Source: Nitrosopumilus sp.
Lineage (GTDB): Archaea > Thermoproteota > Nitrososphaeria > Nitrososphaerales > Nitrosopumilaceae
Reading direction: 5' to 3'
Assembly: GCA_965206745.1 (NCBI GenBank)
Contig: OZ242220.1
Span: 384,001 to 448,000, forward strand
Length of the DNA stretch: 64,000 nt
In this document: piece after piece, positions 30,275 to 45,308 of the stretch
Numbering within the stretch: the first letter of the stretch is position 1
How the letters are laid out: the number at the start of each line of letters is the position of its first letter
Notes under the pieces: model-generated
The model's database searches: none
What the model saw: the letters and a program-made list of their open reading frames with translations, nothing else
What the model was told of the DNA's origin: nothing
Program-made: the position numbers and the translations under genes

Positions 30275-30405
30275 TCTGCCTGAATCTCTGTATTTATCTA
30301 TTTGAGAAATTTGGATACGGTTCTATCTCCTTTAGTTTTAATTCTTCATTACAGCTTGAACAAATTCATCTTACAGAATTCTTCTCTTTGTATTTATCAC
30401 CTAAC

Positions 30406-31473
30406 TCATTCAATATTTTCAACTAAAATCCAAGTTCTCTTCAAAGGCATCTCTATCTTTAATTCATCGCTGAATTTTTCATAATGCTTCATTGTCTCTT
30501 TAACTATCTCGTCTTCTCGCCACAACCTTGTAGAAAAATATGATGTCTTTATTTCTTGTTCTGCTTTACTGGTGATTCCACCCCATGCAACCAATAGACC
30601 ATAATCAGCTTTGTAACGATTTACAACTCCTTCTATCTCTCGCACTATCCTTACATCCGATGGACTTTCAGAAGACTTTACTTGTACACATATTCTTGGA
30701 CTCTCAAGTCCCAGTGGTCCTGAACCTGCAAGGATGTCTACCCCGCCGTCAGGTCCTGGTGGTGAAACCTTTGTAACAAATCCCTTTGCAACCAGTATCT
30801 CATTGACAAGATCTGTAAGCTTGTGTCCCTTGAAATTTATCTTGATATGCTTTGTAATCTGATCTAGCATGATTTGTTCATAGTCAGTTGACACATCTGC
30901 ATCTTCTTCTTGAATGTTTGTAGAGTCAGATTCATTTTTACCAAGCATTTTTCTGACGCGATTCTCTGCATCTTCTTCTTGAATGTTTGTAGAGTCAGAT
31001 TCATTTTTACCAAGCATTTTTCTGACGCGATTCTCTGCATCTTCAGCTTTGACCTTTCCTATGGTCAGATATGCTCCTAAAGAATACAGAATATCTTGAT
31101 CAAAATGCGAACGAGGAATGGTTTTTATCCATTTGACTGTTCTTTGGTGTCTTTTTGCCTTGTCATCTTGTACAAATTGATAATTTCCTGTAGCTTCTCC
31201 TAGTGCAATCAAGCGTTGTGATTTTAACGGCAATGCAATCAAATCCCCAACTTCTATTCTGTTTGAGAAAGACCAGATTTGTCCAACTTGGTTTGCCATT
31301 CTTGCTTTTACATCTGTGGAATAAATGTCTTGATAGATTTTTTTTAATTCGTCTTTGGTTTTAACGTTGGACAGATCTGGTAATTCATTCCATCCAAAGC
31401 TTATGATATTATTATCTAGAAACTGTTGTTCAAACTCTCCTCTTTTTCCTGCCCTTATTAACCAAAAAGTCAT
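30406..31473 (-). CDS. Mrr-type restriction endonuclease
   Basis: WLIRAG N-terminal domain; GPDGGVDI...VQVK Mrr catalytic motif. Confidence 0.88.
   Translation of the reverse strand: MTFWLIRAGKRGEFEQQFLDNNIISFGWNELPDLSNVKTKDELKKIYQDIYSTDVKARMANQVGQIWSFSNRIEVGDLIALPLKSQRLIALGEATGNYQFVQDDKAKRHQRTVKWIKTIPRSHFDQDILYSLGAYLTIGKVKAEDAENRVRKMLGKNESDSTNIQEEDAENRVRKMLGKNESDSTNIQEEDADVSTDYEQIMLDQITKHIKINFKGHKLTDLVNEILVAKGFVTKVSPPGPDGGVDILAGSGPLGLESPRICVQVKSSESPSDVRIVREIEGVVNRYKADYGLLVAWGGITSKAEQEIKTSYFSTRLWREDEIVKETMKHYEKFSDELKIEMPLKRTWILVENIE
30896..31044. repeat. Perfect in-frame 69-bp tandem duplication inside the Mrr-type gene
   Basis: Unit starts at 30896 and 30965, partial third at 31034; encodes DAENRVRKMLGKNESDSTNIQEE twice. 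Confidence 0.95.
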
Positions 31474-32465: not shown

Positions 32466-33125
32466 CTAAAGCGAGTTGACATACTTGCGCAGTTTCTCTG
32501 TCTTTTCCTCGACTGACAGGGGCAGCAGGTCCTTCATCATCTGCTTTAACTCCATCCTCTTGGCATCTCTCCCATCAGAACCGTCCTCTAGCTGCGTCTT
32601 CATTGACATAAAGTGCATTATCATCCTTGCCCGCTCATCAATGGATAGTGCAAAAAATGCATCCTTTACCTCACCCCACTGCTTCATTTTGAGCTCTCGC
32701 TCCTGCGGAGTCAGGTCGGCATGGTGGCCTCTCCATTTTCCGGACTTGTCTGAATGCTTCCAGCTGTTCTTGGGGATGCCGTCTGAAACATGCAAAACAG
32801 TACCATCCCCTGCATCAATAATCACCTTGTAAAACAAGTCGTTACCAGACAGTAATCCGACCTTGTATACCAGGTACCCTTGAATCACCTTTAACTTGCC
32901 CCACATTGCATCAGAATCATCAACTGAATCCTGCGCAGCTGTCATGGCATCAGATAAAGTGATCTGCTCAAGACCCTGATAGTCAGAGTCAGTCACTGTC
33001 ATGCTTCCGGAGATCTCTGGAATTTTGTAACTGCCATACTCTGCAAGAACATCAGACGGTGAAAGTGACATAATTGCAAATATTGATGCTGCGATGATTG
33101 CAGGTATGATGATCTTCTTTTTCAA
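32466..33125 (-). CDS. Secreted PepSY-domain protein
   Basis: Signal peptide; ITLSDAMTAA...LVYKV...VIIDAGDGTVL. Confidence 0.8.
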   Translation of the reverse strand: MKKKIIIPAIIAASIFAIMSLSPSDVLAEYGSYKIPEISGSMTVTDSDYQGLEQITLSDAMTAAQDSVDDSDAMWGKLKVIQGYLVYKVGLLSGNDLFYKVIIDAGDGTVLHVSDGIPKNSWKHSDKSGKWRGHHADLTPQERELKMKQWGEVKDAFFALSIDERARMIMHFMSMKTQLEDGSDGRDAKRMELKQMMKDLLPLSVEEKTEKLRKYVNSL

Positions 33126-33341
33126 GTGATCAGCATTTCATTATTATCAGTAATAACCATTACCGCTGATTCTGTCTGGTTCCACAAACTTGTCTCAAAA
33201 ATGATGAAAATCTTGCAGTTGCTAGTGTATCAAATCTGAGAGATTTTTGATATCTTGGTTGCAAAACTTTTGGTGTATTTGGCATGTAGTTTGTACAGAA
33301 AAAGTCAGTTTGTAGTGAATATTTCGTATATGCTCGACTTT

Positions 33342-33379
33342 TTATATTATAATATACCCTAGTATACTATGGTATACCA
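33342..33379. promoter_or_regulatory. Phased palindromic operator (TAGTATACTA-TGGTATACCA) over the start of an antitoxin-like gene
   Basis: GTATAC at 33362 and 33372, ATATAC at 33352, 10-bp period, just after a TTTATATT box. Confidence 0.5.
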
Positions 33380-33953
33380 AAGTGCACCAAAGCGGGCAAA
33401 TCCGGCCAAATCTGGGAAAAAGATTCACACCATCAAGATCACCTCAACTACAAAGCAAATTCTGGATTCCTCTAAAAATCATCCCCGTGAGACATACAAT
33501 GAACTTATTTTAAAATTGGTCAATGCTACATTACGCAAATTCTCCTTCAAGGAAATACTTGATTTGGCACGTGATGCCGGTCTTCGTACTGTTGTTGATG
33601 ATGTGATCGGTGGAATCAGGATATTTCGCGCCACAGGGGATAACCTGCGTTTGGAGTGCATACAGGATCCTTCTGATTCCAAAGTCCATGCAACGCTGGT
33701 AAAATCAATTCCAGACATAGACTATTCCACATTTAAAACACTAAGGAACACCCACAAGGGATCGACTGTTCGGTTCTCTGGAGACTTGAATGCAGTTCGT
33801 ATATTGGAGGATCCCTCCAGATATGATCTGGATCATAAAACTGTCTTTAAAAAATTACTTGAGATGAAAAAAGAGGTTGGACTTGACATCTCATACCAGT
33901 TCAACAATGAGGAAGATGATCTCAAAAAAATCAAGGAAAAATTAGACATCTAG
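33369..33953 (+). CDS. Protein with N-terminal antitoxin/RHH-like DNA-binding segment
   Basis: TIKITSTTKQILD...RETYNELILKL resembles archaeal RHH/VapB-type N-domains; rest unknown. Confidence 0.6.
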   Translation: MVYQSAPKRANPAKSGKKIHTIKITSTTKQILDSSKNHPRETYNELILKLVNATLRKFSFKEILDLARDAGLRTVVDDVIGGIRIFRATGDNLRLECIQDPSDSKVHATLVKSIPDIDYSTFKTLRNTHKGSTVRFSGDLNAVRILEDPSRYDLDHKTVFKKLLEMKKEVGLDISYQFNNEEDDLKKIKEKLDI

Positions 33954-34511
33954 ACTTTTTTTAATCAGTGATGCAACAGCCGATATGATTTTTGGTGTTT
34001 CTCCTATGTTGGATACGTCCAAATTTGAAATTCTTCCAACAATGATCCCATTTTCTTCTTCAATATTTTCTTGTCCTGTTTGATTGCTGGTTAAAATCGC
34101 CAGTATCTTTATGTTTTTTCTATTGAAGAGTTTTTCCCATTCTTTGATTTTATCCAACTCATCGTCTTTACACAAAATTACTGCATGAGTTCCCACAGAA
34201 ACAAGTATCTCTGTAATATCAGTGGGTTTTCCTGGAAGATCCCCTATGACTAATCTATTTGGTAATGATGCAAATTCTTTAACACATAGCCTAGTCTCTT
34301 TCTCAGTGGGAATTTTCTTTGTACCGTCTCGCTCTTCTTTTGAGATCAAACCTTCTGCATATCGTTTGGTCTCCCCCCAAGGATCATAATCATAATTGTA
34401 CGCATCTGTGCCTAAATCCTGTAGTGCCCTCTCAAGATATAGCGCAAAAGTGCTTTTTCCAGAATGTGGTGGTCCTCCTACAACAATTCTAATTTTTTTT
34501 ATATGTGTCAC
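33942..34511 (-). CDS. Small P-loop NTPase (SIMIBI-like; resembles the ATPase domain fused to some Csx3 proteins)
   Basis: GGPPHSGKST Walker A, YDYDP, IGDLPG, THAVIL. Confidence 0.75.
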   Translation of the reverse strand: MTHIKKIRIVVGGPPHSGKSTFALYLERALQDLGTDAYNYDYDPWGETKRYAEGLISKEERDGTKKIPTEKETRLCVKEFASLPNRLVIGDLPGKPTDITEILVSVGTHAVILCKDDELDKIKEWEKLFNRKNIKILAILTSNQTGQENIEEENGIIVGRISNLDVSNIGETPKIISAVASLIKKSLDV

Positions 34512-35581
34512 CCTATGGATTTAATATCTTTGAGCAATTGCCCAAATTCCTTATGTAATTCTTTAAAATCTTTTAACTTGTTATTATCCTTGGCAATTTC
34601 TTGCATCTTACTTCTTGGAAAATTATGAATTAATTCATAGAGATCTTGAACTCGACTATCAACATTTTCAGAAAATGAACTCGTTAGAGATTTTCTTTGT
34701 TTCTGCCGCTTCATGATTTCTATGGCTTTTTCAATTGTTGCATTATTTTGCATGGCTTTGTATGCATCTTTGCTTTCTAAAATTATTTTATCTAATTTTC
34801 TCACATGTATGGCCATTGGAATTTTATTATTATATATCCAATCCATGAATTTTTCAAGATGTACCGGATCCTCTGTCCATTCTTTAAGGTCTCTCTTTTT
34901 ATATAATTCTAGAAAATGTGAAAATCGTTGCAACCATCGATCATCATCAGGATATTTTTTATGATATAATAATGTGGCATCATATGCTTTAACATTTTGA
35001 CTAATAGTATTTTTACCTATGCTTATTGCTTTTGCAACTTCTTCATAATCGTAATCATATTTTTTTATTAAATCATAAACATGAACACCTTTATTCAATG
35101 CTGCCCAATTTTTTTTCCCACTAACATGTATTCTGGCAAGAAACAATGCCACATCTGCATTACTTGTATCTTTGGGAAGTATGATACATTGTATTGGATC
35201 AATTTGATTGCTGGAAATATTTTTTTCTTTTCCAGAATTAATCTCCTCTATAATTTTTCTCATACATACTGTTCTTCGATTTCCTTCAATTACTGAATAT
35301 TGGGAATTGGAAATTTGACGTACGTATGGTTTTTCAGTCAATCCTTTTGAGAATTTTATTTCTCGAATCAAACTTTTTGTGTCTGTTTCTTGCCATATCC
35401 GATCTTCAATCTGCTCGTTTGTCATTGGTTCTGGAACATGCTTGAATCGAACATTTGTAGGATCAAGAACAAGTTGAGTTAAAGGTATGAATCTAATATC
35501 TGCCTCAATTCTCTCCTCTCCTGTTATGCTTAATTGGATTTTTGATGGGCTTACTGAATTTTTTGTAGTCTTTAGAGTCAC
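34508..35581 (-). CDS. ParB/Srx-fold protein with HTH
   Basis: LVLDPTNVRF...VIEGNRR nucleotide motif; YEEVAKAISIGKNTISQ HTH; GTGA overlap with the NTPase gene. Confidence 0.8.
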   Translation of the reverse strand: MTLKTTKNSVSPSKIQLSITGEERIEADIRFIPLTQLVLDPTNVRFKHVPEPMTNEQIEDRIWQETDTKSLIREIKFSKGLTEKPYVRQISNSQYSVIEGNRRTVCMRKIIEEINSGKEKNISSNQIDPIQCIILPKDTSNADVALFLARIHVSGKKNWAALNKGVHVYDLIKKYDYDYEEVAKAISIGKNTISQNVKAYDATLLYHKKYPDDDRWLQRFSHFLELYKKRDLKEWTEDPVHLEKFMDWIYNNKIPMAIHVRKLDKIILESKDAYKAMQNNATIEKAIEIMKRQKQRKSLTSSFSENVDSRVQDLYELIHNFPRSKMQEIAKDNNKLKDFKELHKEFGQLLKDIKSIG

Positions 35582-35600
35582 GCTTTGTTGTATATGTAAT

Positions 35601-35651
35601 AGTATTAAAAAGTATTGAATACTAGAAAATACTATGAATACTTACAATACT
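35601..35651. repeat. Array of six AGTATT/AATACT hexamers with 9-10 bp spacing
   Basis: AGTATT at 35601, 35611; AATACT at 35618, 35628, 35637, 35646. Confidence 0.8.
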
Positions 35652-35787
35652 TATGGCTATAGAGTAATTTTGTATTCAAGAAACTGATCAAAATTTACTG
35701 AAATATTAAAATCTAAATTTGAAATGTTTCTGGATATTTTTTCTTTTACATGATCGGTTTTATTTACCCGTAATCCATGAAAATATC

Positions 35788-36861
35788 ATGGGTTTTTGTG
35801 GGGGATGTGGAAAACAAGCAGGCGTTAAAGACAGTTTCTGTACTGGATGTGGAACCTCCATAATAGAGTCCAAGATCTCCGTTTTAGAAAATACATCTCA
35901 AATAATTAAAGAAGAATACAAACAAAGCACTGCTTCCCCAGAAGCAGAAATCTCTCAAGGTACACACATTGGTAATCAAAAAAGAAGTGGAGAATGGTTG
36001 GAATCTACCACTTCACATATTTTGAAATTTGCAGGTTTTGATGTTGATAGAGAAGTTTCATTTGTTTTTAATGACAGCACTAATGATAAATTTAGAATAG
36101 ATGTTCTAGCGCGTGATCCAAATATAGAAATTTTTGTCGAATGTAAAGATTACGCTGATTTGAAAATGTCAGAAAAAATAATGTACACATTAACTGGTCA
36201 GTTGAATGATTACAGAAAAAGACAGAGCAAAGATGTAGTGGGACTTCTTGTTATGACTGCAAAAGATGATGGACGTAATCAGGGAATTAGAGAAAATCTA
36301 AAAAAACATAATTGCTTTTTGTGGGATGGTGCATTTTTAGAACATTTGGAAAACAAAATTATCGAACTAGGAAATAAAGAAGATTTTCGTAGATATATTT
36401 TAGATCACCTGGGTATTTTTGAAGAACTTGAAAAGAAAGCTAAAGGTGAATACTATGATTTCATGATAAAATACTCTGTACATACAATTCCCCCTGATCA
36501 ATATGTTGGAAAATCATTTGATATTATGAATATAGTTGATGAATTAAAAGAGCAATTGCCTGAAAAAGTAAGCATTGTAAATCATACTTACCATGCAATT
36601 AAGAATAACAAGCAAATTCTTAGCTATAACATAGTTGTAGATTTTAGCTTTAAACTTACAATGGATGAAATCAATAAAATTGCTAAATCTAGATGTAAGT
36701 TTGGTGAAAGAATACGAAGGCGAAAACCTGAAGAAATTACATATCGGAGCTTCCGAGAAGACATTTACAATATTTTATCTAGAGTTTATGGTATTAGTTA
36801 CAACCCTAAGAAAAATAGCCAATATTATGATATTGAATTCATGGGAAGTAGGATCAAATAG
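35788..36861 (+). CDS. Zn-ribbon + PD-(D/E)XK restriction-endonuclease-like protein
   Basis: MGFCGGCG...FCTGCG; GEWLE...RIDVLA...VECKDY. Confidence 0.8.
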   Translation: MGFCGGCGKQAGVKDSFCTGCGTSIIESKISVLENTSQIIKEEYKQSTASPEAEISQGTHIGNQKRSGEWLESTTSHILKFAGFDVDREVSFVFNDSTNDKFRIDVLARDPNIEIFVECKDYADLKMSEKIMYTLTGQLNDYRKRQSKDVVGLLVMTAKDDGRNQGIRENLKKHNCFLWDGAFLEHLENKIIELGNKEDFRRYILDHLGIFEELEKKAKGEYYDFMIKYSVHTIPPDQYVGKSFDIMNIVDELKEQLPEKVSIVNHTYHAIKNNKQILSYNIVVDFSFKLTMDEINKIAKSRCKFGERIRRRKPEEITYRSFREDIYNILSRVYGISYNPKKNSQYYDIEFMGSRIK

Positions 36862-36923
36862 TCTTTTTAGATTTTTTATCATATATTCGTTCTTTAGAAT
36901 CGATCAATTTCATTTGAATATCG

Positions 36924-37186: not shown

Positions 37187-37717
37187 TTATTCTACAGGCT
37201 GTAAAGTATACATAATTACATTGCGTAAATGTCCGTTTACATCGTATTGTGACTCATTACCTGTTTTTTTTACTTTAACTTTACCGATATACTTGTGATC
37301 ACTACCCTGATTATCTTGCCAGAACAAATGTATTTCTTGTCTCTTGGATTCTGCATTTTTTAATCCAGAATTGTTTGAATTGTCATAACTCTGATTACCT
37401 GATAACCCTTGACCCGTATATCGATAAAATCCATCTTTACCAATTCTGTCATTATAGCTATTATTATTTTTATTTTTAATTACGATCCAACACTTGTATT
37501 TTTTGTTGTAACTTATTCCCCATCGTGGATGTCCTACGCGTTTTCGAATAAGTTTTTGTTTATAATATTTTCCTTGTTCAAATGGAAAAGAATCATTTGA
37601 AAGAATTTCATTTTCATCTTCTCTTTTTGGAATTTGAGATAAATCATCACATTTTTTACATTTTAAACCCATTATTGTTTCAATTTTCAATTTTCCACAG
37701 TTTTCACAAAACTCCAA
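37187..37717 (-). CDS. Zn-ribbon + SRA/YDG-like modified-base reader, no nuclease domain
   Basis: FCENCG...CKKC; GISY...YNDR...YRYTGQGLSGNQ...IHLF...YIGKV. Confidence 0.8.
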   Translation of the reverse strand: MEFCENCGKLKIETIMGLKCKKCDDLSQIPKREDENEILSNDSFPFEQGKYYKQKLIRKRVGHPRWGISYNKKYKCWIVIKNKNNNSYNDRIGKDGFYRYTGQGLSGNQSYDNSNNSGLKNAESKRQEIHLFWQDNQGSDHKYIGKVKVKKTGNESQYDVNGHLRNVIMYTLQPVE

Positions 37718-38065: not shown

Positions 38066-38629
38066 TTATTCTACTGGTCTTAGTAAGAATTCATAGACTT
38101 TTCTATCCTTTCCTTCCTCATCTGGTTGAATATTTTGTATAGTATCTTCAAGTTTTACTAATCCAATGTACTTGTGTTTACTTTCACCGTTTTGTTGTCG
38201 AAACAAATGAATCTCTGTTTTGTTCTTGCTGGAATTATGTACACGGTCATTGGCTCCGGTCAAAGCTTGATCTCCTTTATTTCCTCTTCCAGTATAGTGA
38301 TACAAATTGGTTTGAGGATCAAACCTATCAAGATGTGGATTGTTTTCTTGAAATTGGGGATTATGTGCACTGATAAAAAGTACTAGGAAATTCCCCCTTA
38401 CATGATAATTTATTCCAGGCATCAAACCTAATCCTAATCTATGTCTAACATGACTGTGCAAGTAATATTGTCCCTTTTGAAATGGAAAACTTGGACTATT
38501 GTAGATGACTGCTTTTTTCCTCTGCTCTGCCATCTCTTCCATTTTTTCTAGTTCCTCTTTATCACATTTTGGACATTTTCCCATCTTTGTCTTGAGTAAT
38601 TTTGAACCACATGTATTGCAGAACTTCAA
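38066..38629 (-). CDS. Zn-ribbon + SRA/YDG-like reader, paralog of 37187-37717
   Basis: FCNTCG...CPKC; GINY...HLDR...YHYTGRGNKGDQ...IHLF...YIGLV. Confidence 0.8.
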   Translation of the reverse strand: MKFCNTCGSKLLKTKMGKCPKCDKEELEKMEEMAEQRKKAVIYNSPSFPFQKGQYYLHSHVRHRLGLGLMPGINYHVRGNFLVLFISAHNPQFQENNPHLDRFDPQTNLYHYTGRGNKGDQALTGANDRVHNSSKNKTEIHLFRQQNGESKHKYIGLVKLEDTIQNIQPDEEGKDRKVYEFLLRPVE

Positions 38630-42204: not shown

Positions 42205-42339
42205 CAGTAAATCCCTGTATTGATACTATAAATATTTTATGGCATATACCTTACTTTGTTCATTAAAATAACTAAAACTATCATATATGTTAACTATTTT
42301 ACAAGTAAATATCATATAGGAGGATCTTTCAGTATTTTC

Positions 42340-42708
42340 ATGCCAGTCACACCTCCCGAGGAACAAGAGGGAGTCTTTACAAGAATCTTCCAAAATGGTT
42401 CTACAGCAAAAGTGATTGATTTCTTTTTGGATCATAGAGACCTTGATTATTCACTAGCTGAAGTATCAGACAAGGCAAAGATCTCAATCCAGACTACATC
42501 CAAAGAAATAAGCAATTTAGAAAAAATGGGTTTTCTAACAAATCAACGAACTATTGGAAAAACCATGATGTATAGGTGGAATTCGGACACAGATGTGTTA
42601 AGATTATTGCAGGAATTTGCTTTACTGATAGCACAGACACCTTCTTTCCAAAATTATCCTGAAAAAACAGAAAGGCAGGATATTATTGAAAGTACAATAA
42701 ATCACTAG
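42340..42708 (+). CDS. Winged-helix (ArsR-like) transcriptional regulator
   Basis: AKVIDFFL...YSLAEVSDKAKIS...RTIGKTMMYRWN; start at ATG 42340. Confidence 0.8.
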   Translation: MPVTPPEEQEGVFTRIFQNGSTAKVIDFFLDHRDLDYSLAEVSDKAKISIQTTSKEISNLEKMGFLTNQRTIGKTMMYRWNSDTDVLRLLQEFALLIAQTPSFQNYPEKTERQDIIESTINH

Positions 42709-43203: not shown

Positions 43204-43947
43204 CTAAATCTGACTGATTCTTTTGTGAGCTATTTTATAGTTTTTTTCATCTTTTTCAAAACAAATGTATTTCCTGTTTAATTCTGTTGCCACTTTACAT
43301 ACTATGCCTTGTCCTGCAAATGGATCTAGAATAATGTCTTTTTCATACGTGAAAATCTGGATTAATCTTGCTATGATTTCATAGGGAATTCTATCTTGAA
43401 ATTCTGATTTCTTTTTAGGCTGCACAAACCATACTGAATCGTTCCACTCCGTTTTGACTTCACCATCAATATCTATTTTTGATATGCGCTCCTCACTGTC
43501 TACATACTCAAATTCAGAACCCTTTCTTTGAAATATATGAATGGTTGAAAATGGTGTATCTTCATAATTTATCAAAATCCCACTTTCCATAGGATTGATA
43601 CTTTCAGTTGATGATTTTGGACTTTTTACCCATATGATCTCTTCATGTTTCTCCCAATCCTCCAAATTCTTTGATTCCATCATCTGAAAAATATTTTTGG
43701 ACACCGAGGACATTGTCTGATTTGAATTCTTTTCTTCATCAAGAATTAAGCAACAAATTCCTCCGTTTTTTGTAACTTTGGCAATCTGTTTTATGATGAT
43801 TTGAAGTTTTGTCAAATATTCCTCATTCAAATCCTCACAAGTGATGTATGGTGGTTTAATTATTGAAAGAGTAATGTTTTTTTCATTATGCCATTTTGTA
43901 ATATTTTGACTATCATCACAAATTATTTGTTCAACTTTTGATTTCAT
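43204..43947 (-). CDS. Beta-class DNA methyltransferase homolog with degenerate catalytic motif
   Basis: IIKPPY in place of (D/S)PPY; IIWVK; LDPFAGQG SAM motif; ATGA overlap with upstream MTase. Confidence 0.8.
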   Translation of the reverse strand: MKSKVEQIICDDSQNITKWHNEKNITLSIIKPPYITCEDLNEEYLTKLQIIIKQIAKVTKNGGICCLILDEEKNSNQTMSSVSKNIFQMMESKNLEDWEKHEEIIWVKSPKSSTESINPMESGILINYEDTPFSTIHIFQRKGSEFEYVDSEERISKIDIDGEVKTEWNDSVWFVQPKKKSEFQDRIPYEIIARLIQIFTYEKDIILDPFAGQGIVCKVATELNRKYICFEKDEKNYKIAHKRISQI

Positions 43948-45308
43948 TTGGTATTTTTCTTTGCTCTAGTCTTTATTTTAGTTTTTACGGTTAGTTTCAA
44001 TTTGATTCCTGTTTTCTGATATAATTCAGCCATGCGTTTTTTTCTACCTGTTTTTTCAATTTTCTTTTCATAAAGAAGAATATCAATAATTGCTTTTACC
44101 GGTTGTCTATTTTCAACTAGTCTTTCTGGTAAAATTGTATTCAAACTTGCTTTATGAAATTCACTATTTGGTAATTTTTTCAATGCAGTGCCCAAATGTG
44201 ATTTAGGATCTTTGATATTTCCTAAATTTATTCGTGTGGTTAGTTTCATATCTCTTCCCATTATATAACATATGTAATTCCCTGTGTTGTTTTTGTAATA
44301 GACGTAAGTACTTTTGAATCCTCTTATTTCTTTTTCAGAGACTTCTTTGAATTTGAATTTATAACCTTTTGGAACTTTTGGAACATCAAGATGTACATCA
44401 TCTTTCTTGCCTGATTCTTCTGCATCAGTCCACTCAATTGGATGATAAACTGGAATCATAAAATTTGATGATGTGAATTTTTCATCTAGTCTTTTTTTTG
44501 CTAATTCTACATATTGTTTTCTTAAATCCACTCCGATGAAATTTCTTTTTAGTAATTTTGCCATTTTTGTTGTCTGACCGCTTCCATTCATTGGATCTAG
44601 TACCGCGTCTCCTTTCTTTGAATATAGTTGGATTAGCCTCCATGGAATTTGCTCTGGAAATACTGCAGGATGTTTAACCACTCTCGGCGGGACAGGCGTA
44701 ATATCCCAAATGGATAGTGATACCTGTCTTTTCATAGCCCTGTTTAATGGAATTGTTTCGGTATTTCTTCTATCAAATATCTCTTTCTCTCCTCCCTTTT
44801 CTAACACTATGATGTATTCATGCATGATATTTGATCTATAGTATGTTGGATAGGAATACTGTACAAAAATGCCAAATCTATTTCCTGCTCCATTTCTTCC
44901 TGCAGTCACTTTATTCCAAATTATGGTGTCTCGTAAATGCCATCCCAATTCATTTTCTTCTTCTTTGATTAGTCTTGATATCAACAAACTTGACAGTGGT
45001 ATTAATTTTCCATTTGAAACTTCATCACCAATTACAATACAGCAGAATCCTCCCGGTTTGGTCACTTTTAATACTTCGGAAAATATTTGCTCCATTTCAT
45101 CCAAGTATTTCTTAGTGGTAGTTCCACCATTTCCACGAAATGATGCTTTTTGAGAATTTTTTTCATTTTTTACGTGCTGTGAATAGTTTATTGCGTTTCC
45201 ATAAGGTGGTGAAGTGATAGTTAGAGAAATACTATTTGGCTTGATAAATTTGGATAGTTCTTTGCTATTTGCATTAATGATGTCATTTACTATGAATTTT
45301 TTTGCCAT
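43944..45308 (-). CDS. Beta-class N4-C/N6-A DNA methyltransferase with extra C-terminal domain
   Basis: TSPPY, IIWNK, HPAVFP, LDPMNGSG. Confidence 0.9.
   Translation of the reverse strand: MAKKFIVNDIINANSKELSKFIKPNSISLTITSPPYGNAINYSQHVKNEKNSQKASFRGNGGTTTKKYLDEMEQIFSEVLKVTKPGGFCCIVIGDEVSNGKLIPLSSLLISRLIKEEENELGWHLRDTIIWNKVTAGRNGAGNRFGIFVQYSYPTYYRSNIMHEYIIVLEKGGEKEIFDRRNTETIPLNRAMKRQVSLSIWDITPVPPRVVKHPAVFPEQIPWRLIQLYSKKGDAVLDPMNGSGQTTKMAKLLKRNFIGVDLRKQYVELAKKRLDEKFTSSNFMIPVYHPIEWTDAEESGKKDDVHLDVPKVPKGYKFKFKEVSEKEIRGFKSTYVYYKNNTGNYICYIMGRDMKLTTRINLGNIKDPKSHLGTALKKLPNSEFHKASLNTILPERLVENRQPVKAIIDILLYEKKIEKTGRKKRMAELYQKTGIKLKLTVKTKIKTRAKKNTK

Follow-up and report, generated by a model that had tools for sequence, protein, structure and literature searches.

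The window analysed here is a 64,000-nucleotide stretch of the genome of Nitrosopumilus sp. (contig OZ242220.1), in which two minus-strand genes encode a ParB-like protein of 357 amino acids (34508..35581) and a small NTPase of 189 amino acids (33942..34511), both single-copy in the 1.86-Mb genome. The two genes share the four bases GTGA (34508..34511, minus strand), with the TGA stop codon of the ParB-like gene at 34508-34510 and the GTG start codon of the NTPase gene at 34509-34511. A third gene, on the plus strand (33369..33953), encodes a 194-amino-acid protein, the partner of the NTPase, and converges on the NTPase gene so that the 3′ ends overlap by 12 bases, TTAGACATCTAG (33942..33953); within this overlap the stop codon of either gene is the complement of a Leu codon in the other. 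Before the ParB-like gene lies an array of six AGTATT/AATACT hexamers (35601..35652, minus strand), a candidate binding or loading site for the ParB-like protein.

Contigs from two DNA-type runs, spanning 32894-35395 and 33107-36868, showed no differences to the window. A preliminary description of this DNA had reported the overlapping minus-strand pair, and its reading frames and shared bases were confirmed, as was the presence in the translations of the motifs LDPTNVRF and IEGNRR (ParB-like protein) and GGPPHSGKST, YDYDP and GDLPG (NTPase). The GTGA overlap itself is possibly not conserved, as the called protein of a relative with 88% identity begins three residues later. The locus is embedded in a low-GC island of the defence or variable kind: GC content is 0.28-0.33 at 34-38 kb of the window versus 0.46-0.49 in the flanks, and an Mrr-like PDC-S02 gene, an SRA-like gene and two N6_N4 methylase genes lie near the locus.

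The ParB-like protein comprises a predicted N-terminal ParB/Srx-type NTP-binding domain, a helix-turn-helix (HTH) region and a helical C-terminal half. N43, R45 and E99-G100-N101-R102-R103 are invariant across 28 ParB-like sequences, so that the N-terminal domain carries invariant LDxxNxR and EGNRR motifs. Foldseek comparison of an AlphaFold2 model (pLDDT 89.1) returned 27 PDB matches at E ≤ 0.001, the best being Noc (7ol9, 1.3e-6), ParB (7bnk, 2.1e-6), KorB (8qa9, 5.1e-5) and Spo0J (1vz0, 2.7e-4), with CTP- or CDP-bound ParB among the top matches and sulfiredoxin also present at weaker E-values; the ParB/Srx fold with HTH that had been read from the sequence is thus borne out by the model. 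Pfam ParB_N (PF02195) gave no match to the ParB-like protein at E ≤ 0.01, PDB searches with either single sequence, ParB-like or NTPase, returned no match below E 0.1, and a scan of the genome contigs with the single ParB-like sequence found one weak partial locus. Two distant relatives (25-29% identity) do pass the ParB_N cut-off of 26.3 bits, with 27.5 bits (L038) and 31.9 bits (L039).

The P-motif of the ParB/Srx superfamily (GERRxR, Box II) is present in the ParB-like protein as the invariant EGNRR, which is aligned with GERR in the profile match to Noc, Asn standing at the position of the Glu. We take this Glu to be E102 of Caulobacter crescentus ParB. In the C. crescentus protein, the E102A substitution keeps CTP binding and abolishes hydrolysis (PMC8367383).

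The upstream array ends about 20 bp before the start of the ParB-like gene and, read on the gene strand, has four AGTATT hexamers in direct orientation and then two inverted ones (AATACT), spaced 7-10 bp apart. It holds six of the 38 AGTATT/AATACT hexamers in the window, a number reached in none of 20000 shuffles, and its triple-repeat pattern is found nowhere else in the genome. A similar AGTA[TC]/ATACT array is kept upstream of 12 ParB-like relatives of 50-73% identity, and other ParB-like lineages carry different repeat cores. The array is likely to be the binding site of the ParB-like protein. Such binding would serve autoregulation, loading of the protein or both, as with ParB, KorB and Noc at their sites.

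Downstream genes were tallied at the 63 assessable loci among 80 metagenome loci with ParB-like relatives. A small PD-(D/E)xK-like ORF follows the ParB-like gene at 10 of the 63, which are all ten assessable loci of 50-73% identity, and RusA follows it at a further ten, in a further clade; the remainder have a second canonical ParB (9), a methylase (1), other ORFs (13) or no coupled downstream ORF (20). RusA was above the Pfam cut-off in four genome loci (31.9-38.4 bits vs 22.8), and ten further metagenome ORFs cluster with the RusA of these four. The PD-(D/E)xK call rests on an E...PD...DxK motif and sub-threshold Pfam matches, and a profile of these small ORFs returned nothing below E 0.29 from the PDB. 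The downstream genes lie close to the ParB-like gene: the gap measures −4 to +3 bases where RusA follows, between −23 and +34 where the PD-(D/E)xK-like ORF does, and −4 at the NTPase. PADLOC had no match for the PD-(D/E)xK-like ORF, RusA, the 194-amino-acid family, a radical-SAM-like ORF or the second ParB, and none of the papers listed by a literature search dealt with a ParB and RusA pair in archaeal defence. The ParB-like family thus appears, from gene neighbourhoods, to have partners of its own (small nucleases, with methylases or a second ParB elsewhere) and a site of its own. The most likely role of a family that keeps such company is to target or mark DNA, be it in defence or in the upkeep of a mobile element.

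Two PADLOC systems touch the ParB-like protein through their subunit-A models. PDC-M38A matches residues 32-350 (E 1.8e-20) over profile positions 12-359 of 715 only, and PD-Lambda-5_A matches the first ~100 residues (3.5e-7); no other PDC-M38 or PD-Lambda-5 model had a match among the 23 proteins scanned from the window and related loci. In the literature PD-Lambda-5 figures as an ‘RM+Abi’ system of prophages, compacted and labelled as a methyltransferase (PMC9519451), whereas the ParB-like protein has no methyltransferase domain. Distant ParB-like relatives do adjoin C5 methylases in P2-like prophages. PDC-M38 was not mentioned by any paper of the searched library.

The closest described company for the ParB-like protein is found among orphan proteins of the ParB-CTPase fold (Noc, KorB, VirB and BisD type). 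It shares with them a ParB N-domain joined to an HTH, a GxRR-type P-motif (with Asn in place of the Glu of GERR), a gene that belongs to no parAB operon and lies in a mobile or variable region, and an adjoining repeated and putatively cognate DNA site. It differs in its helical C-terminal half, for which there was no match, in falling short of E 0.01 with ParB_N, and in the small-nuclease partners of its family, which are not mentioned in those parts of a 2025 survey of such proteins that were available (bioRxiv 10.1101/2025.10.10.680097); the word ‘RusA’ has no occurrence in the same portion of its text (PMC12704722). The survey reports many orphan ParB homologues on mobile elements and finds archaeal HTH forms rarely accompanied by ParA (bioRxiv 10.1101/2025.10.10.680097, PMC12704722).

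The NTPase carries the Walker A sequence GGPPHSGKST and a D91xPG motif, and all of 35 NTPases compared share G13, P14, G18, K19, D43, D91, G94 and W125. It is matched over positions 5-183 of 183 by the PADLOC ‘Csx3’ model PDLC01515 (1.2e-23), and the models ‘Csx3’, ‘AAA-Csx3’ and ‘Csx3-AAA’ together match at 1.2e-23 to 8.6e-18, covering the NTPase half of the fusion models only; weak Pfam matches were to AAA_18 and KTI12. The full-length profile match and the Walker A, D and DxPG motifs place the protein in the Csx3-associated family of P-loop NTPases, which has 810 representatives at E ≤ 0.001 and in which 18 of 65 long members contain Pfam Cas_csx3. The preliminary description was therefore right in setting it apart from ParA and in linking it to the P-loop NTPases that are fused to Csx3. 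The Csx3 domain itself (PF09620) had no match in the NTPase or the 194-amino-acid protein; a genome-wide PF09620 search matched nothing, its control included, and so carries no weight. In viral contigs, none of 13 pattern matches to the NTPase family was confirmed.

Could the NTPase and its partner have been left behind here by a type III CRISPR system, as an accessory to its cyclic-oligoadenylate signalling and with no connection to ParB? The fusions to Csx3 among the long family members speak for this, as do relatives on plasmids of the cyanobacteria Nostoc and Pseudanabaena that adjoin Cas10, CARF and RAMP genes. The NTPase here nevertheless differs from the Csx3′ and Csx3-AAA proteins of type III CRISPR loci: it corresponds along its full length to their non-Csx3 half, is free-standing, and is paired with a 194-amino-acid protein for which PADLOC had no matching model and Pfam no family above its cut-off. 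Neither member of the pair has a Csx3 domain. The genome, 99.6% complete, also yielded no Cas10 above the cut-off in a search that did match the control genomes (Csm1 reached 20.5 bits with internal stops and Cmr2 had no match), and the family is spread across archaeal genomes in non-CRISPR contexts. We regard this origin as very improbable. The absence of CRISPR-cas and replicon genes nearby, noted from the sequence at the outset, held for Cas10 across the genome and for replicon genes within the island.

The constant partner of the NTPase is the 194-amino-acid gene on the opposite strand. Among 401 genomes of the class, the 194-amino-acid family occurs in seven, namely the same six as the NTPase and a further genome with a 45-residue remnant, and it is, like the NTPase, sporadically distributed and sometimes multi-copy (one genome has four copies). 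At each of the seven assessable places the genes converge, and their 3′ ends overlap by 12-27 bp (12, 12, 12, 12, 27, 24 and 18 bases). Homologues of the two proteins, of 63-65% and 70% identity, were also found on contigs of the same lengths, 1579 and 1829 bp.

A complex of the two proteins was predicted with an ipSAE of 0.90 in three runs against 0.33 for the best control; of the solved complexes, 116 of 157 attain the mark applied, as do two of 215 mismatched pairs, counts that hold only roughly here because our own alignments were used. Contacts agreed by at least 96% between runs and the pLDDT of the partner was at least 89. The predicted interface includes NTPase residues 20-21, 24 and 47-49 and, on the partner side, residues 133-145, among them the invariant G138 and D139, such that the invariant Gly-Asp loop of the partner faces the P-loop side of the NTPase.

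The C-terminal domain of the 194-amino-acid protein (about residues 55-194) is confidently folded in its AF2 model, and the N-terminal ~55 residues have low pLDDT and are swapped between subgroups. No Pfam family reached its cut-off in the 194-amino-acid protein; DUF7557 matched the N-terminal region at 20 bits, below its cut-off of 25, and was sub-threshold in four of 11 members. AbrB/SpoVT-like N-termini had been suspected by eye in other homologues and were discarded, as Pfam at E ≤ 1 gave no such match in 11 members. For the C-terminal domain, Foldseek returned no match at E ≤ 0.001, and VIA-align gave as best matches type III secretion chaperones, YbjN-like proteins and a Mediator subunit, with a best Z of 6.9 that lies under the trust level of ~8, so that no fold family is claimed. 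An Atlas search with the whole protein had a best score of 0.78, which we treat as a lead only.

Among type II toxin-antitoxin pairs, those of the zeta/epsilon type have a P-loop kinase as toxin. The NTPase and its partner resemble them in joining a small P-loop protein to a small protein that is predicted, by the same complex model, to sit over the nucleotide face, and in their patchy, multi-copy occurrence with exchange of the partner's N-terminus between subgroups. They differ in that their genes are convergent with overlapping 3′ ends and do not form a co-directional operon, an orientation that is unusual in toxin-antitoxin pairs, and there was no sequence match to the zeta or epsilon families. 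The 194-amino-acid protein may regulate or neutralise its partner, an effector that would be an NTPase or resemble a kinase, much as in toxin-antitoxin or abortive-infection pairs; type III CRISPR loci couple this NTPase domain to a Csx3 domain that binds cA4.

The ParB-like gene and the NTPase gene were proposed in the preliminary description to form a new, recurrent two-gene system. They were found in 14 and six of the 401 class genomes, respectively, and together in the present genome only: the NTPase is missing from the other 13 genomes that carry the ParB-like gene, as is the ParB-like gene from the other five that carry the NTPase. No ORF at the 80 metagenome loci with ParB-like relatives matched the NTPase. 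Within the genus, the NTPase profile matched two of 151 genomes, the present one and another through a 22.8-bit match inside a 443-amino-acid frame. The best 149 NTPase-family representatives contained no ParB-like, 194-amino-acid-family or small-nuclease domains. Outside the present genome, the trio is apparently kept in one relative of ~90% identity, adjacency there being deduced solely from a shared contig size of 980225 bp. The proposed two-gene system fails the test that the preliminary description had set for it, co-occurrence elsewhere: the pair does not recur across these genomes and metagenome loci, and each gene has a different, conserved partner. We consider it probable that the two overlapping genes are separate accessory modules, lying side by side only in this lineage.

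An atypical partition system had been among the functions envisaged; in it the ParB-like protein would bind the upstream repeats as its centromere, and the small NTPase would stand in for ParA. The ParB fold, the adjacent iteron-like array and an NTPase encoded directly downstream suit that idea. ParA carries a ‘deviant’ Walker A motif. The locus has instead a 189-amino-acid, Csx3-associated NTPase whose Walker A motif (GGPPHSGKST) and place in the gene order are not ParA-like, and no ParA was found among the scanned neighbours. The locus is moreover chromosomal, the island has no replicon genes, the NTPase has another conserved partner and the pairing is not recurrent, all of which make partition extremely unlikely. 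The 2025 survey, according to which chromosomal ParABS is generally absent in archaea, counts against it as well (bioRxiv 10.1101/2025.10.10.680097, PMC12704722).

The stop and start codons of the two genes overlap by four bases, which leaves no room for a separate NTPase promoter, so the NTPase is probably co-transcribed with the ParB-like gene in this lineage. In this arrangement the NTPase gene would fill the slot that elsewhere in the family appears to belong to a nuclease gene, for a PD-(D/E)xK-like protein among the closest relatives and for RusA in the further clade. The co-expression could reflect real functional coupling, following capture of the NTPase by the ParB-like operon.

Taken further, that coupling would make the ParB-like protein the constant DNA-sensing or clamp subunit of a modular system with a swappable downstream effector, the three genes here forming one defence system. 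The downstream slot is indeed tightly coupled in several lineages (the RusA, PD-(D/E)xK-like and NTPase gaps), its content varies while the ParB-like gene and upstream array persist, and the NTPase sits exactly in this variable position, in a locus that lies within a defence island and whose trio is apparently retained in the ~90% relative. The NTPase pair, however, occurs without the ParB-like gene in all five other genomes, in some of them between housekeeping genes; the combination is seen in one lineage only, 20 of the 63 assessable ParB-like loci lack a coupled downstream ORF, and no fusion of the two families appeared among the best 149 NTPase representatives. We think a single three-gene system unlikely on balance. 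Its fullest form is similarly doubtful, in which the ParB-like protein would be the site-loaded clamp of an undescribed modular archaeal defence family whose array travels with the gene, whose effectors are interchangeable and whose NTPase brings its own tail-to-tail inhibitor; so, too, is the corollary that the NTPase would there be the free-standing form of the effector domain coupled to Csx3 in type III CRISPR.

We therefore favour, as the probable account, a composite of two independent accessory modules set in the low-GC island. The first would be an orphan ParB-fold and HTH protein acting at the array before its own gene, with a downstream gene that varies among relatives. The second would be the NTPase and its tail-to-tail 194-amino-acid partner, which are inherited together and for which a complex is predicted.

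If so, the locus illustrates how tight gene overlap can mislead, as the proposed ‘system’ would be a lineage-specific junction of two modules, each of which is uncharacterised. The ParB-like module belongs to an archaeal orphan ParB family whose candidate binding sites co-vary with protein lineage and whose partners are small nucleases, and it offers a tractable case for the roles of ParB-CTPase folds outside chromosome partition, a question that the 2025 survey leaves open. The NTPase and its partner are strictly co-inherited, their interface is confidently predicted to lie at the nucleotide face, and they may provide a way into the function of the ‘kinase/transferase’ domain that is fused to the ring nuclease Csx3. 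Both modules are present in ammonia-oxidising archaea, organisms whose defence repertoire has been little studied.

The two genes at issue lie on the minus strand of the window, where a 357-aa ORF encoding a ParB-like protein (34508..35581) runs into a 189-aa ORF encoding an NTPase (33942..34511), four bases being common to the TGA stop of the first and the GTG start of the second. This overlapping arrangement, reported in the preliminary description, is borne out by the ORF list and the sequence, and the motifs quoted there are present and correspond to conserved positions of both families: N43, R45, E99-G100-N101-R102-R103, H152, G155 and W159 are invariant in 28 ParB-like sequences, as are G13, P14, G18, K19, D43, D91, G94 and W125 in 35 NTPases. 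Each gene occurs in one copy in the 1.86-Mb genome (99.6% complete). The homologues are labelled Marine Group I thaumarchaeote, Nitrososphaerota or Nitrosopumilales in their sources, making the organism an ammonia-oxidising archaeon.

The 357-aa protein gave no significant Pfam match, lying below the ParB_N threshold. An AlphaFold2 model built from the 28 sequences (pLDDT 89.1) found its best PDB matches in Noc, CDP/CTP-bound ParB, KorB and Spo0J (E 1.3e-6 to 2.7e-4), with sulfiredoxin ranked lower, and a profile search aligned EGNRR to the GERR motif of Noc; the initial reading as a ParB N-domain followed by an HTH is therefore right. The standout variant is the replacement of the Glu of GERR by Asn. 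A partition system seems unlikely. The protein resembles the orphan members of the ParB-CTPase fold that a 2025 survey describes on mobile elements (bioRxiv 10.1101/2025.10.10.680097, PMC12704722), and it fits that class. Against the PADLOC defence-system models, it matched PDC-M38A at 1.8e-20 (profile positions 12-359 of 715), making up only half of that candidate, for which our literature search found no publication, while its first ~100 residues matched PD-Lambda-5_A (3.5e-7). A near precedent for a ParB-nuclease link comes from Asgard virus genomes: a variable region in these is reported to encode ParB-like proteins, which may or may not end in an endonuclease domain (PMC11529989).

The pair had been proposed as a candidate new two-gene system. 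Among 401 genomes sampled from the class, the ParB-like protein was matched in 14 and the NTPase in six, and the window's genome was the only one with both. The genus was represented by 151 genomes, of which the NTPase profile matched that of the window alone, besides one 22.8-bit match in a 443-aa frame. From 383 confirmed relatives found in metagenomes with the ParB-like alignment, 80 loci were retained, and BLAST with the NTPase against every ORF of at least 50 aa in these loci gave 0 matches. A ParB-like domain was absent from all 149 of the best NTPase-family representatives. With one class genome in 401 and none of 80 metagenome loci, a recurrent two-gene unit is not supported. We infer a second co-occurrence in a relative with proteins 91% (ParB-like), 88% (NTPase) and 95% (a 194-aa protein encoded beside the NTPase) identical to those of the window, each from a 980225-bp contig; the NTPase as called there starts three residues later.

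A ParB-like ORF was called at 75 metagenome loci, and the usual neighbours of the family were tallied at the 63 of these that have at least 400 bp downstream. A 108-125-aa PD-(D/E)xK-like ORF follows at ten loci, which are all ten of 50-73% identity, a 115-aa RusA at ten, a second, canonical ParB at nine, a methylase at one and other ORFs at 13; the remaining 20 have no coupled ORF. Such variety might suggest a modular system with a constant ParB and a swappable effector, which we regard as rather improbable. The small nuclease-like ORF has an invariant E...PD...DxK motif and sub-threshold Pfam matches only, and as a query it found no homologue in the window's genome (best E 0.027). It follows the nearest ParB-like relatives (L046-L055 and L029:2313-2941), and at L029 a second small Hjc/Mrr-like ORF comes after it. 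ParB-like genes of 33-38% identity are coupled translationally, mostly by a 4-base overlap, to the RusA-family resolvase, both in the ten metagenome loci (L106, L110, L112, L113, L115, L117, L118, L120, L122 and L123) and in four genome loci where RusA exceeds its Pfam cut-off (L032:6417-7795, L033:7055-8445, L034:7511-8946 and L035:2634-3999). Neighbours of the ParB-like/RusA loci include Fic, TPR, NACHT and Shedu genes.

Upstream, a B12-binding/radical-SAM-like gene (~380 aa, sub-threshold Pfam) directly precedes, and is co-oriented with, the ParB-like gene in 15 loci (L058, L059, L061, L063, L065-L067, L071, L073, L075, L077, L093, L104, L107 and L119), and a divergent N6_N4 methylase lies on that side of the gene in 11. 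A three-gene set combines a divergent 433-aa N6_N4 methylase, the ParB-like gene and then the second canonical ParB, which has a GERRFR motif and matches Pfam ParB_N at 2.2e-29 (L068, L072, L074, L076, L078, L081, L084, L085 and L111); GGTCC/GGACC repeats lie upstream at these loci. Other neighbours in genome loci include Mrr, SNF2 helicase, MT-A70, OLD-TOPRIM, TdeIII, Shedu and NACHT. Two ParB-like genes have internal stop codons (L031 in genome G303 and L045 in G037), the former flanked by IS240-type DDE transposase genes. Two viral contigs from P2-like bacterial prophages (L127 and L128) encode distant relatives, 25-30% identical over the N-domain; downstream of each come an ORF of 330-340 aa and then a C5 cytosine methylase.

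The 137-bp spacer upstream of the ParB-like gene (35582-35718) holds an array of six AGTATT/AATACT hexamers (35601-35652) spaced by 7-10 bp, about one helical turn. These are six of the 38 such hexamers in the whole window, a number reached in 0 of 20000 spacer shuffles, and the genome has no further instance of the triple-repeat pattern. Irrespective of their surroundings, the 12 relatives of 50-73% identity carry a similar AGTA[TC]/ATACT array upstream, and alignment of the 13 upstream regions left the AGTA, A-TAT and ATAC columns invariant. More distant lineages have arrays with other cores (ACGGTTTAGC, GGTCC/GGACC and CAGTACCAT), again at about one helical turn and just before an AT-rich TATA-like box. 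Overall, a 5-mer in at least four copies within 60 bp was found in 17 of 72 distinct upstream regions, against 0 of 72 in-gene control windows. Since the repeat core co-varies with the protein lineage, these comparisons point to the array as the putative cognate binding site of the ParB-like protein.

The NTPase keeps other company. A homologue of the 194-aa gene (33369..33953 in the window, plus strand) adjoins every NTPase homologue on the opposite strand, and its family profile matched seven of the 401 class genomes, namely the same six as the NTPase and a 45-residue remnant in a seventh (G152). The two genes are convergent at all seven assessable places, with 3' overlaps of 12, 12, 12, 12, 27, 24 and 18 bases, and metagenome homologues of both come from contigs of matching lengths, 1579 and 1829 bp. 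One genome, G203, has four copies of the pair (L042, L043, L138 and L139); two sit amid housekeeping genes, one being flanked by polyprenyl synthase, NUDIX and mevalonate-pathway kinases and another by RtcB.

The C-terminal domain of the 194-aa protein (residues ~55-194) was modelled confidently (pLDDT above 90), and the N-terminus, which varies among subgroups, poorly; structure comparison of the model assigned no known fold family. Residues 55-194 and the NTPase gave a predicted complex with an ipSAE of 0.90 in three runs (best control 0.33), with at least 96% contact agreement and a partner pLDDT of at least 89. Of 157 solved complexes, 116 attain the ipSAE mark, as do 2 of 215 mismatched pairs; these counts are approximate because our own alignments were used. 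In the predicted interface, the partner's invariant G138-D139 loop packs against NTPase residues 20-21 and 24, beside the P-loop, and 47-49, around the invariant T48. The modelling thus supports the 194-aa protein as a real partner of the NTPase. No PADLOC model matched this pairing, and no Pfam family did so at its cut-off.

The kinship of the NTPase domain with Csx3 fusions, put forward in the preliminary description, held up. The non-Csx3 part of the PADLOC models 'Csx3', 'AAA-Csx3' and 'Csx3-AAA' was matched at 1.2e-23 to 8.6e-18; among 1.84 billion representatives searched by profile there were 810 relatives, and Pfam Cas_csx3 was present in 18 of 65 scanned long relatives (of 76 listed above 260 aa). 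Relatives on Nostoc and Pseudanabaena plasmids lie within type III CRISPR loci. We consider it unlikely that the window's NTPase is a stranded CRISPR accessory; no Cas10 scored above cut-off in its genome. The protein belongs to the Csx3-associated NTPase domain family and is not Csx3 itself.

Both genes lie in an island whose GC content is 0.28-0.33 at 34-38 kb versus 0.46-0.49 in the flanks. It contains a minus-strand Mrr-type restriction endonuclease (30406-31473; PADLOC PDC-S02, 1.8e-130); a plus-strand zinc-ribbon protein with a weak RRG7/REase-like core (35719-36861), in the lowest-GC part; a minus-strand SRA-like gene (38066-38629) with a CxxC...CxxC N-terminal zinc ribbon and a weak SAD/SRA match; a minus-strand neighbour (37187-37717) with the same type of ribbon and no Pfam match, its likeness judged by eye only; a plus-strand PDC-M05A-like ORF (42256-42708; 1e-6); and, further along, two adjacent minus-strand N6_N4 DNA methylases (43204-45308). 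Within the product of the Mrr-type gene, a stretch of ~22 residues (AEDAENRVRKMLGKNESDSTNIQEED...) is exactly duplicated in tandem. In DNA sequencing run X2, one contig matched up to window position 30309 and then continued into unrelated sequence, and summed contig depth was 4.5-37 inside the island (30.3-46.3 kb) versus 40-53 in the flanks, which hints weakly at variation of the island between co-occurring strains.

The observation and the fold and family calls of the preliminary description thus stand, and recurrence as a two-gene unit does not. In our reading, two accessory modules have come together at this locus, within a low-GC island. The first would be a DNA-binding protein of ParB type that has a site of its own and normally works with a nuclease or methylase, and the second would be an NTPase with a partner dedicated to holding it. 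In this lineage, the position of the nuclease is taken by the NTPase, which probably shares a transcript with the ParB-like gene; the data are compatible with either a neutral deletion product or a functional capture. What emerges, instead of a recurrent two-gene system, is two uncharacterised modules of moderate interest.
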